Below are positions 12,001 through 18,000 of a DNA stretch of 64,000 nucleotides, piece after piece. The position numbers were made by a program. The stretch is from a virus (taxonomy: Duplodnaviria > Heunggongvirae > Uroviricota > Caudoviricetes), in IMG/VR virus record IMGVR_UViG_648028025_000010. One strand, 5' to 3'. Numbering within the stretch: position 1 is the first letter of the stretch; each line of letters opens with the position of its first letter.

Positions 12001-15000
12001 CTCCGGCATAACTGCGTGCAATGGGTTTTGAAGGTACTGGTGCCTGCACGATATGGTCGCACCGGCAACAGGCCTGTTTCGGACGTTGTGTTTCGATAAC
12101 CTTAAAGGCGCTGCTGATAAGCTCCAGTTGCTCTGACACATCACATCCCAGAGAACTGAGTTCACCACCACAGGCAGGACAGCATTCCTCTTCCGGCCGG
12201 ATAACCCGGGTTTCACGGGGAAGTGAGGCCGGTAACGGTTTACGGGCTGAAGACTGGCGCAGGGCGGATGGCAGTACCGGGTCATATTGCTCACCCAGCG
12301 TTTCCGCCATTTCTTCCTGAAGTGCGCTGATTCGCTCCTGTGCTTCCTGTATCTGCCGTTCGGTTTTTGCACGAAGTTTTTCTGAGCTTTTACCGAACTG
12401 CATACGTTGCAGTTTCGCAACCAGCGCCTTCAGCCGGTTGATTTCGGAAGCATAAGCCGCCACCCGCTGTGAGAGCAGGCGGTTGTATTCAGCCATCTGG
12501 CGGATGGTGTCCTGTTGCGTCTGCAACAGTGCCCGCAGGCGGGCGTTCTCATGAGCAAGTGAGGTGTCCATATCCTCACTTTACAACGGGTTATATGCGG
12601 ATTCCAGCGCGTTCCGTTCGTTTCGGGTGCTTCCAGTTGATACCTTCAAGAAGCATGGATAACTGAGCCGGAGTAAGGTGCACCTTGCCGTCACGGGTGA
12701 CTGGCCAGACGAAGCGGCCCCGCTCCAGGCGTTTGGTGAAGAGGCACAGTCCGTCACTGTCAGCCCACAACACTTTTATCTGGTCACCCCGGCGTCCGCG
12801 GAAGATGAACAGGTGTCCGGAGAACGGGTCATCCTTCAGGACGTTCTGAACTTTTGATGCCAGGCCGTTAAAGCCATTTCGCATATCGGTGATACCTGCA
12901 ACCAGCCAGATACGCGAACCTGCAGGGAGAGATATCATCAGTGGCTGCTCCCTTTTATTTCGCGGATAAGTGTCTGTAATAACGCCGGCGTCAGTTTACC
13001 TTTAAGCCTGAGAGTTCCGGCCGGCAGAACCAGCTCACAACACAGACTGTCGGACGGTGTATTTATCTGCTCTGGTTCCTGTGCGGGGGCCGGGATTTTA
13101 TTATCCGGCTCCGGCGTTAACGTCACGGGAAGCAGTGCCGGCATATTTTTTCCGGAAGGCAGCAGGCCACCTTTCCGGTATTGATGGCGCCAGTTGAAGA
13201 GCAGGTTATCGTTGATTCCGTTTTCCCGGGCGATCTGCGCCACACAGGCTCCGGGCTGCAGTGACTGCTCCACTAAGGCGATTTTAAACTCATAAGGGAA
13301 GTTGGGCCGCCGGGGACGTTTTTTTACCACGGGGGCTTCGGATATAACGGTGCTTTCAGGACGTACGACTGGTACCGTGGAAAATTGTCCGTAAAGGCAG
13401 GCATCAAGTTCCTGCTCCGACATGCCTGCGGGCAAAGGCCACGAAAGGCCAGCTCTCCGAAAGCGCACGAACATACTACAAACTGTTGATTTTGGTACAC
13501 CCAGGCGACGCCCGGCCACAACCCGGGGTAAATGTTCTTCAAAGTGAAGACGTAAAGCTTCAGTGATCCAGGTCCGGTGTTTCATACGATAGTGTCCATT
13601 AAAAATGATGGACATTATTTTTGTAGAGCCGGAGGAAACAGACCAGACGGTTTAAATGAGCCGGTTACCGTTAAAAAAGGCCCGGGAAAAATCGTTTATG
13701 GAAGGAAGGGAATATAAGCATGTCGCTCATGACGGTATGCCATGGGATAACAGTCCATGCTTTTATAACCTGGAAGAAATTGATCGCTGGATTGAGCGCC
13801 AGGCATCAGCGAGACCAAGACGTCATCTTACTTGACTAAAAGCCACACTAACTAATGAGAGAAGTTGAAATGAAATATCCGACAGGCGTGGAAAACCATG
13901 GAGGGAAATTACGTATCTGGTTTGTTTATAAAGGCGTAAGAGTCAGGGAAAATCTGGGGGTTCCTGACACATCAAAAAACAGGCGCGTTGCAGGTGAACT
14001 ACGCTCCTCTGTTTGTTACGCAATAAAAACTGGTGTTTTCGACTATGCAAAACAGTTTCCCTCCTCACGCAATCTGGAAAAATTTGGTGAGGCCCGACAA
14101 GATTTAACCATAAAAGAACTGGCTGAAAAATTTTTGGCACTGAAAGAAACTGAAGTCGCCAAAACATCACTCAACACATACCGTGCCGTCATCAAAAATA
14201 TCCTGAGCATAATCGGTGAAAAAAATCTTGCCTCATCGATTAATAAAGAAAAATTACTGGAGGTTCGTAAAGAGCTACTGACTGGATACCAGATCCCCAA
14301 AAGTAACTATATTGTTACACAACCAGGGAGATCGGCTGTAACTGTAAATAATTACATGACAAATCTTAACGCCGTGTTCCAGTTTGGTGTTGATAACGGT
14401 TACCTGGCAGATAATCCGTTTAAGGGGATCTCGCCATTAAAGGAATCAAGAACCATTCCGGATCCTCTTTCGCGGGAGGAATTTATCCGTCTTATCGATG
14501 CGTGCAGAAATCAGCAAGCAAAAAATTTATGGTGTGTTTCTGTTTATACTGGCGTTCGCCCTGGTGAGCTGTGTGCACTTGGATGGGAGGACATAGATCT
14601 GAAAAATGGAACAATGATGATCAGGAGAAATTTAGCAAAAGACCGTTTCACGGTACCAAAAACACAGGCGGGAACCAATCGGGTCATTCATCTTATTAAG
14701 CCAGCAATCGACGCTCTCCGGAGTCAGATGACATTAACGAGACTGAGCAAAGAGCATATCATTGATGTTCACCTCAGAGAGTATGGCAGAACAGAAAAAC
14801 AAAAATGCACCTTTGTTTTTCAACCTGAAGTGTCAGCGAGAGTAAAAAATTATGGTGACCATTTTACCGTTGACTCAATAAGGCAGATGAGGTGTACTGG
14901 CAATAGCGGACACTACCATTTGTTCTTTTTTTAAGCAGCCATCTGATGATATTTTTCCCTGAAGGCTGCCGGGGAGATATTCCCCAGACGAGAGTGACGA

Positions 15001-18000
15001 CGCTGACGATTGTAGAAAATCTCAATGTATTCCCGTATTACTGAGATGGCTTCATCCCGGTTATTAAAACGATAGTGGCTCAGGCTCTCATTTTTCAGCG
15101 TTCCCCAGAAGCTTTCCATCGGAGCGTTGTCGTAACAGTTACCTTTACGCGACATTGATGTTTTCAGACCAAACTGCTCCTGTATGACCCGGTAATCGTA
15201 TGCGCAGTACTGTGAACCTCGATCAGAGTGGTGGATTAGCCCGGCAGGTGGGCGCTGGCTCCTGAGCGCCATAAACAGAGCTTTACCTGTCAGCTCTTTT
15301 GTCATGCGCTCTCCCATGGCGTAGCCGACAATTTCGCACGTATAAACATCTTTGATGCCAGCGAGGTACAACCATCCCTCCTGTGTGGCAACATACGTCA
15401 GGTCCGCCACCCAGACCTGATTTGGTGCTGTAGGAGCGAACGTCTGGTTCAGCAGATTTGGCGCAACTGGCAGATTGTGGTTCGAGTTCGTAGTCGCTCT
15501 GAACTTGCGTTTCTGCTTACAGCGTAGCCTTAGCTCCTTACGAAGACGTGCCAGTCGGTCACGACCAACGATGATGCCATTCTCTGCCAGCTCCGTCTGG
15601 AGCCGCCGGGTTCCATATGTTTCGCGAGTGCGGATATGTGCCACCTTAATCTCCAGTTTTAGCCGCTCATCACTTTGTTTTCTGTCTGAGGGTTCATGCT
15701 GTACCCAGTTGTAATAACCGCTCCTGGATACACCAAATACCTGACACATCGCTTCAATGGGAAATTGTTGTCGCCATTGTTCGATTAACGCGTATTTTTC
15801 AGCGACTCCTGTGCAAAATACGCTGTTGCTTTTTTTAATATATCTCGCTCAAGGCGAGCTTCATTTAACGCCTTACGCAGTTGCAGAATTTCAGATTCCA
15901 GTTCAGCCACCGTGCGGGAACCAGGAGTACCGAGCCCTTTTCTGGCGGCGGTAACCCATTGTCCTAAAGTGCCTTCAGGAAGAGATAATCGGGAAGCGCC
16001 TTCACTGATCGAAAGTTGATTTTCAAGAACCGTTCTGACAGCTTCGGCTTTGAACTCTTTAGAGTAACGTTGGGTTTTTCTGCTCATTATTAGCTCCTTC
16101 TGATGCCATTCTATTTCAGGAAGGAGTGTCCGTTAAACTCAGGCTACCTCAAGATGTGGGACGCAGCGATAAAACGTGCCGGACTCCGCCATCGAAAATC
16201 ATATCAGTCGAGACATACTTATGCCTGCTGGTCGCTGACAGCTGGTGCTAACCCGGCATTTATAGCAAACCAGATGGGCCATGCAGATGCGCAAATGGTA
16301 TTTCAGGTATACGGAAAATGGATGTCTGAAAACAATAATGCACAGGTAGCTTTGTTAAATACACAGTTAAGCAAGTTTGCCCCAACCATGCCCCATAACG
16401 AAGCAATGAAAAATTAATTTAATATTTATCAAATAGTTAACACGCATGACTCTTGAAATCCATAATTCATAGATGTTTTTTACTATTCTGTGGGTTTTTG
16501 GGTGTTTTCTAAGTTTTTTCAGATGGTTGTATTTTTTCTAAAAATCCCTAATCTCGATTTTGCTGTTTATTTGAGGCCTTTTTATGTCCCATATATGCCC
16601 CACAGATACCCCGCAGCCAAAATCAACAAAATGCCAAAAGGTTCTGTTCCTGCCCTGCAACAAGAAATGCTGCGACGTGTCAGTAAACGTTATGACGATG
16701 TAGAAGTGATCATCAAATCCACCAGCAACGATGGCCTTTCAGTTACTCGCACCGCCGATAAAGATTCTGCAAAAACTTTTGTTCAGGAGACGCTGAAAGA
16801 TACCTGGGAGTCTGCTGACGAGTGGTTTGTTCGCTAATAAACACGTAAATCGGTAACGGCTGGAAATCATTCAATACTCGCACTATCGAAAGTTCACCAG
16901 CCAACCGCGACACGCTCTTACATACGAAGTGCCGCGCTTTCCTTAATAATTTTTTAGCAGTACTGTGTAAATGATGAGCGACCTAATCCATGCATGACGC
17001 GTAGTGCCTATTGTGCATCTTTCTGCGTCTCTTTTTACTGGACCCAAGCCAATGATGCTGGCGATACCATTCCCGCCAGGCCCACTTACAACAGTAAAAT
17101 TCGGAGCTCTGCCTTTACATACAATACAATGTTGCACGATTGCCCATCATCAACTCCGTTAATATCTATGAGTAGTAACCCTATGTAACTGTAAAGACGA
17201 ATCAGCGCTAATTGTGTCTGTCCACATCCCCAAATGTAAAGATATAAGGAGCACCATGATACAGTTGGATCTGATTTACATCCTGTAAATTCTCGTCGAT
17301 AGCCACCCCTAGAAAATCATGTTGCTGGATAAATCCGTATCCTATGTTAGACACAGCGGAATACTCTGTGAAATCAGGACTCGCCTCATATCGGTCACTG
17401 ATCGTACCCAGTCTTTCGAAGAAAGCCCTCTCATTCTTTTCATGCCTCATGGCAGCCTGTCGAAGGGCATTCAGGTTACGTAGTCTAAGATGAGCTTCTC
17501 GTTCTGGCTCTGCATATCCTTTGAAGTCGGGAACACTCCATCCCAGCTCTTGAGCGACACGACGTGCGAGAATCTCGGTGGGTCCTAGCTCTATATTACT
17601 ATCTCCAGATGGATCGCTGGCCCCAGTAACATGATGAATAATCTCGTGAATCAGTCCTTCCTGCCACGATGGCATCTCATAAGAATCAGTATCTGGCGCA
17701 ACACTAAAACTGACATAAGGCTCTTCGTTCTCGTTTTCTCCTGCCTCGCAAATGGGGAGAATTGGTTCTTGCCCGACATCGTATCCATATAATTCGTTAC
17801 AGGTTAGTGATTGAATATCATCAATTTTGATAGCAGATTCTCCGTTAAGCTCGTATTCGTTTCTGTATTTAATGCAACCAATGTGTACCTCCTCATTATG
17901 AATGCCATAGCTTACGGCATCACGAAATGTTTGTGATCGGCTCAACGCATCAAGTACAGTGTTGCCAATCATATCGACCGTATGCTGATCGATGAGCCTG

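Follow-up and report, generated by a model that had tools for sequence, protein, structure and literature searches.

The cryptic prophage Qin of Escherichia coli K-12, reportedly one of the 'grounded' prophages, lies between ydfJ and rspB. Passages of the report by Nakamura et al. 2021 (PMC8112680) describe clusters of tandem lambdoid prophages at the same ydfJ locus, with integrases knocked out by insertion sequences (ISs). In O157:H7 strain PV15-279 the integrases of both ydfJ prophages are IS-inactivated (PMC8112680), so that an IS-inactivated ydfJ integrase has already been described. The stretch analyzed here, 64,000 nucleotides of IMG/VR record IMGVR_UViG_648028025_000010 (the window; all coordinates refer to it, position 1 being its first letter, unless another genome is named), is the ydfJ/rspB (Qin) locus of E. 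coli O26:H11 with two tandem prophages, and within it a complete copy of IS600, a member of the IS3 family, splits the integrase gene (int) of prophage A. In a BLAST comparison with E. coli O26 str. RM8426 (NZ_CP028116.1, 2159134-2223133), the identity of the window is 99.975%, with 15 mismatches and 1 gap over 64 kb; over the part compared, neither 12689 nor 2012C-4606 is a nearer match. In order, the locus consists of a truncated ydfJ', the Qin-like prophage A, which is ~50 kb long and has a complete set of structural genes, the nleC-carrying prophage B (~47.6 kb), and rspB. It has in common with Qin of K-12 the ydfJ/rspB site together with dicB, ydfA-D, relBE, hokD, cspB/F/I, essD, and rrrQ, and with the tandem clusters the nleC-carrying right-hand phage that is described for O26:H11 in the same passages (PMC8112680).

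IS600 within the integrase gene of prophage A

The element proper occupies 14888-16151 on the minus strand (1264 bp) and is bracketed by two copies of AGA, at 14885-14887 and 16152-16154, of which only one is present in the empty-site alleles of the prophage B paralog and of O26 strain War; the left copy is made up of the last two nucleotides of codon Q339 and the first of M340. Read across both ends, the sequence runs ...AAGGC AGA / TGAGGTGTACTGGCAATAGCGGACACT ... AGTGTCCGTTAAACTCAGGCTACCTCA / AGA TGTGGGAC..., and the terminal inverted repeats, each of 27 nt, lie at 14888-14914 (orfB end, starting TGAGGT) and 16125-16151 (orfA end, finishing ACCTCA), pairing imperfectly with 70% complementarity. 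Both open reading frames (ORFs) of the element are on the minus strand: orfA (15785-16087) encodes 100 aa with an HTH_Tnp_1 domain (PF01527, E=1.5e-20), and orfB (14931-15749), in the -1 frame, encodes 272 aa from its ATG, with HTH_21 (PF13276) and the rve DDE core (PF00665, E=3.2e-26; rve_2 and rve_3 also match in the Pfam search). The candidate D, D, and E residues of OrfB were read from the sequence in WVADLTY, HSDRGSQY, and NAPMESFW. An A7G slippery heptamer at 15829-15836 (minus strand; IS nt 316-323) is the predicted site of a -1 frameshift that would yield an OrfAB fusion of 385 aa, and the Prokaryotic Genome Annotation Pipeline (PGAP) annotates the IS600 copy as a joined coding sequence with a 'programmed frameshift'.

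The original prediction had described an IS600-like element of the IS3 family at 14885-16154, with a length of 1264 bp, TGAGGT/ACCTCA termini, orfA/orfB, and a 3-bp AGA duplication. All of these are present, and the span is correct, comprising the IS itself plus both copies of AGA. Over its whole length (1264/1264 bp, 100%) the element matches copies, found on chromosomes and plasmids of O26 and O121, that RefSeq labels 'IS3-like element IS600 family transposase', while plasmid copies from Shigella, with the same ends, are 99.8% (Shigella sonnei) and 99.3% (S. flexneri) identical to it. The length (within ~1.2-1.55 kb), the TG...CA ends, the two ORFs, the slippery site, the rve core, and the 3-bp duplication are those of the IS3 family; nothing was found that contradicts the identification, and on the strength of these matches the description can be sharpened from IS600-like to IS600 proper, in a copy that is complete and probably still active. 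Its boundaries are fixed by the agreement of three independent insertions, since identical 1264-bp copies occur in strains War and UTAK-15 within unrelated flanks and with target-site duplications of their own (GTT and TAG, respectively, as against AGA here). Alignment to references, for which the annotated and Shigella copies stood in for the ISfinder entry, likewise gave no different boundaries. A second IS600 copy was sought within the window and none was found.

The insertion divides int of prophage A into a 5' fragment (13870-14887, plus strand; codons 1-339 and one nucleotide) and a 3' fragment (16155-16417, plus strand; from the remainder of codon 340 through the stop codon), which PGAP annotates as pseudogenes, 'tyrosine-type recombinase/integrase, missing C-terminus' and 'missing N-terminus'. 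When IS600 and one AGA are removed, an ORF of 1281 nt and 426 aa, starting at 13870, is restored; the insertion point falls after int nt 1018, in codon M340 of the 426, and cuts off the C-terminal 86 residues. The reconstructed gene is identical to the intact int of strain War (1281/1281 nt), and its product is nearly so to the allele of O157:H16 98-3133 (423/426 aa, 99.3%). Against the empty-site reference, the 426-aa int paralog of prophage B (62720-64000, plus strand; annotated as an intact site-specific integrase), the fragments are colinear, with 1190/1281 nt and 406/426 aa (95.3%) in common, so that both the splitting of int and the in-frame resumption of its coding sequence relative to the paralog stand as had been claimed.

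The same joins decide whether the arrangement could have come about by recombination between two IS600 copies, or as an artefact of assembly, instead of by simple insertion. O26 genomes contain 10-14 places matching IS600, which makes rearrangement or misassembly possible in principle; a two-copy recombinant, however, would show unrelated flanks and unmatched duplications, whereas the 3-bp duplication is perfect, the flanks rejoin to an int identical to the intact allele, and the junction is the same in three independently assembled complete genomes. Reconstruction of int and the three-genome junction together refute this explanation, whose probability we regard as negligible, in favor of simple insertion.

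As expected for a tyrosine recombinase, the reconstructed 426-aa Int A contains Arm-DNA-binding (PF12167, E=1.5e-23) and Phage_integrase (PF00589, E=3.9e-18) domains. Alignment with the Int of Tn1549 places TGVRPGEL (Arg I) and PKTQ (Lys) upstream of the break and YQSRHT and GH...VY downstream of it. The 5' fragment thus holds the Arm-DNA-binding and core-binding domains with the first catalytic part (Arg I, Lys), from which IS600, in the window, separates the YQSRHT box (Arg II/His) and the GH...Y motif with the nucleophilic Tyr, both in the 3' fragment. We take this nucleophile to be the only Tyr in GHADAQMVFQVYG, where the Tn1549 Int alignment is offset by one residue. The reading frame of the 5' fragment continues into IS600, giving 340 native residues followed by 14 IS-derived codons, and we infer that its product cannot be catalytically competent, because the tyrosine-recombinase mechanism needs residues downstream of the break. 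At the other end of the element, a 104-codon ORF (16103-16417, plus strand) begins at an ATG in the orfA end of IS600 and continues, without a change of frame, through the final 86 codons of int; it could in principle express a catalytic C-terminal Int fragment.

Two successive insertions in the recombination module

The excisionase gene (xis) of prophage A is interrupted as well, by an IS66-family element, as the original prediction held. This ISCro1-type element (10970-13668, minus strand, 2699 bp; 'IS66-like element ISCro1 family transposase' in PGAP) separates a 5' fragment of xis (10877-10969, plus strand; annotated by PGAP as an xisR pseudogene, missing C-terminus), broken after ...GGTACGTTAAAA, from a 3' fragment recognized by reconstruction (13669-13835, plus strand). 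The last 8 nt of the former and the first 8 nt of the latter are the two copies of the 8-bp target duplication CGTTAAAA, at 10962-10969 and 13669-13676. Within the element, ORFs and Pfam matches define tnpA (13615-12938), tnpB (12938-12591; TnpB_IS66, PF05717, E=4.7e-40), and tnpC (12571-11000; DDE_Tnp_IS66, PF03050, E=2.5e-103), all on the minus strand, and this tnpA-tnpB-tnpC order, the 8-bp duplication, and an end of the GTAAGCG type, GTAAGCGACTCG, are those of the IS66 family. The reconstructed Xis A has 83 aa and is identical at 82/83 positions to the product of the xis of prophage B (62434-62685, plus strand; 83 aa, DUF1233 excisionase by Pfam), which is annotated as intact. The possibility that ISCro1 and IS600 form a composite transposon was considered and rejected, as the two belong to different families, have separate duplications, and are differently distributed in the population.

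Junctions were counted over 5426 complete E. coli genomes, that of int::IS600 with a 200-bp junction test. An uninterrupted int site is present in 2959 of them (2524 at >=99% identity), IS600 at codon 340 of int in three (RM8426, 2012C-4606, and 12689), and the xis::ISCro1 junction in 63 at >=80% coverage, mostly O26 and including a few two-piece matches. This difference in frequency (3/5426 versus ~60) means that the two insertions are independent events, as had been proposed. Strain War combines xis::ISCro1 with an intact int and has no prophage B, which puts ISCro1 before IS600; on the evidence of these junctions, IS600 hit int later, in one O26 sublineage. That IS600 is active in O26 follows from two further, independent insertions. 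UTAK-15 carries a separate IS600 in the same int, 291 bp upstream and in the same orientation (4458-5721 of the compared UTAK-15 stretch; target equivalent to window positions 14594-14596, duplicated as TAG), a position found occupied in 1/5426 genomes, and in strain War the identical element sits inside tnpA of ISCro1 (6001-7264 of the compared War stretch, duplication GTT). The repeated insertions suggest that an already xis-defective module tolerates further IS hits.

Looser matches to the interrupted gene turned out to be other things. Fourteen genomes cover at least 80% of a 3.5-kb query, and not all are carriers, the junction test leaving 3; UTAK-15 itself, with 100% query coverage, failed that test and has its IS600 at a different site. 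Matches of ~95% identity, in O121 and others, are joined BLAST pieces in which IS600 is merely near a B-type int, and those in O157:H16 and commensal strains have IS600 in the exonuclease region, with int intact.

Taken together, a recent transposition of IS600 into codon 340 of int of a Qin-like ydfJ prophage, as the second hit in a decaying recombination module, is the account that we hold with high confidence. Elements of the IS3 family move by a copy-out/paste-in route through a circular intermediate and cut their target with a 3-bp stagger, and IS600 entered codon 340/426 by ordinary transposition of this kind. The insertion parts the arm-binding and core-binding domains, together with the catalytic residues that come first, from the 86 residues at the C-terminus that contain Arg II, His, and the Tyr nucleophile, leaving a prophage A that presumably no longer encodes a working integrase. 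ISCro1 had knocked out xis earlier, in an ancestor of O26, and since xis was already broken, IS600 represents a second, probably neutral hit in a module already in decay. The comparisons above demonstrate what the element is, where it ends, its duplication, the exact recovery of the int ORF, the succession and independence of the two insertions, and the setting in tandem prophages. Several points weigh against this account: the loss of Int activity, the neutrality of the IS600 hit, and the immobility of the prophage are deduced from sequence, the neutrality specifically from the broken state of xis, and host traits such as the IS-excision enhancer gene iee are extrapolated from RM8426, which differs from the window by the 15 mismatches and 1 gap.

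Attachment sites and the mobility of prophage A

The attachment (att) core GAAATCCATAA, contained within TTGAAATCCATAATTCA, lies at 16455-16465, at the junction of prophages A and B, and as phage arms flank it on both sides this junction (16418-16620) is attP-like. In the RM8426 locus the core occurs exactly three times, at the ydfJ'/A boundary (2125708-2125718), at the A/B junction, and at the B/rspB boundary (2223170-2223180). In strain War, without prophage B, the int-side arm of A directly abuts the rspB side, and prophage B must therefore have integrated into the int-side att site of A. Between the att arms of A and B the identity is 81-87%, and in arms of both types (A)TGCCCCA is repeated at the same three offsets relative to the core, -77, -66, and +141 (window positions ~16378-16396 and 16596-16603). 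Over the whole 64 kb there are just 4 occurrences of ATGCCCCA. The repeats are candidate arm-type Int binding sites common to both prophages.

Prophage A has att cores on both sides; with int and xis both IS-split, it does not have the make-up of a self-excising prophage. The strongest form of this view, that the two IS insertions together lock prophage A in place so that it is not excised under any circumstances, is one that we find plausible, if slightly doubtful. Both recombination genes that it encodes in cis are interrupted, the ~60 genomes with xis::ISCro1 still have the prophage at ydfJ, as vertical inheritance over a long period would lead one to expect, and the ydfJ prophages of O157:H7 PV15-279 with an IS-inactivated int were, according to one legend, left out of attP determination (PMC8112680, S7 legend). 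The xis defect, on the other hand, does not require IS600, and in the adjacent prophage B the genes for Xis (82/83 aa identical) and Int (406/426 aa identical) are both intact, to be set beside an att core shared with A, arms 81-87% identical, and (A)TGCCCCA at equal offsets. Passages of Nakamura et al. 2021 report an attP amplicon, obtained by polymerase chain reaction, from the right-hand, nleC-carrying ydfJ prophage of O26:H11 strain 11368 (PMC8112680), which argues that Int and Xis of the B type are functional; an intact iee in the host lineage counts against a permanent lock as well, as in O121:H19 the IS-excision enhancer, IEE, removes IS600 and so makes lacZ whole again (PMC9397093). 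The original prediction that prophage A is fixed in place thus stands in cis, where int and xis are both split, and does not carry beyond cis, where B offers intact copies of both genes and the same att core. The immobility of A is what we infer from its own genes, and its defect may be bypassed in trans.

The iee position of RM8426 (1300621-1302981) is occupied by an intact gene for a 786-aa protein with an archaeo-eukaryotic-primase (AEP) domain, named a 'TOTE conflict system' protein by PGAP and adjoining remnants of IS66, IS30, and IS600; the flank of iee is also present in 2012C-4606. In length and domain the gene matches the published IEE, whose reported substrates belong to the IS3, IS1, and IS30 families and do not include the IS66 family (PMC9943667). 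The lesion in xis is for this reason probably permanent, while that in int may be reversible, since iee is intact in the nearest host genome sequenced. The case of lacZ::IS600 in STEC (E. coli that produce Shiga toxin) O121:H19, which delays lactose utilization (PMC9397093), is closely parallel: there, too, a simple insertion has occurred in an iee-positive background, with the transposase opposite to the target gene.

It can accordingly be asked whether int::IS600 is a reversible switch, in which part of the population regains int through IEE-promoted excision, as happens with lacZ in O121:H19. The IS600 copy is complete, with an intact transposase, RM8426 has the AEP-domain gene at the position of iee and 2012C-4606 has the iee flank, and IEE-dependent excision of IS600 with recovery of gene function has been published (PMC9397093). 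Yet in the lacZ case excision was demonstrated and revertants are selectable (PMC9397093), whereas no selection for int+ revertants is evident here and no cured sister genome was specifically identified. Moreover, restoring int alone would not give excision from prophage A's own genes, because xis would remain split by ISCro1, of a family not among the IEE substrates (PMC9943667). We therefore consider the switch unlikely. More improbable still is the broader proposal that the split int is not inert at all, being either such an IS600/IEE reversible allele or the source of a truncated Int with a dominant-negative effect on the shared att sites. In the second version, a protein of 340 native residues and a 14-residue tail, with arm- and core-binding domains, may act as a partner of the 95%-identical Int B. 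If either were true, it would modulate excision of the nleC-carrying prophage B. Stepwise decay of the recombination module of A, with the IS600 insertion as its later event, remains the account that we prefer.

Neighboring features and comparison with known systems

Several other features of the two prophages were noted. The early region of prophage A contains a partial transposase pseudogene of the IS1202/ISNCY type (ISEsa1 family; 2724-3794, minus strand). The same pseudogene is found at the same place in O157:H16 98-3133, so that among the lesions of the Qin-type prophage it is one of the older; this segment is missing from strain 12689, as is relBE. At the tail-fiber end of prophage B, nleC (17208-18194, minus strand) encodes a type III effector with the zinc-metalloprotease motif HEIIH; a DinI-like gene (16595-16837) and small pseudogene fragments come before it. 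RefSeq places three tRNA genes (Arg, Arg, Ile) of this prophage upstream of its late region (~48275-48525, minus strand; RM8426 2207408-2207657). Its minor tail protein U gene (~31272-31666, minus strand; RM8426 2190405-2190799) has an annotated frameshift in each of RM8426, 12689, and 2012C-4606, and prophage B may therefore excise yet not make infectious particles.

The element is a familiar one, as are its mechanism and this type of event, and the int pseudogene fragments that flank IS600 are already present in PGAP annotation; the insertion takes the IS-driven decay of a STEC O26:H11 lambdoid prophage one stage further and adds little beyond strain-level bookkeeping. As a junction confined to 3/5426 complete genomes, int::IS600 can nevertheless serve as a lineage marker. 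With xis hit first and int only afterwards, on two independent occasions, the succession of insertions exemplifies how recombination modules, once disabled, go on to erode. It is also unsafe to call a prophage immobile from its own genes when a tandem neighbor supplies nearly identical Int and Xis and the host has an IS-excision enhancer.

Unlike Qin of K-12, the O26 prophage is ~50 kb long with a complete set of structural genes, and its recombination module has been disabled by two ISs and not by large deletions; around the insertion site, a 200-bp segment of int is 100% identical in K-12 W3110-P. PV15-279 is a different strain, and the passages of PMC8112680 that concern its IS-inactivated integrases make no mention of an IS600 insertion at codon 340. 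The element agrees in length, ends, orfA/orfB, A7G heptamer, and 3-bp duplication with IS600 as first described in Shigella sonnei and as amplified in non-O157 STEC. Between this copy and known IS600 there are no differences in the element itself, and only its insertion site is particular to this O26 sublineage.

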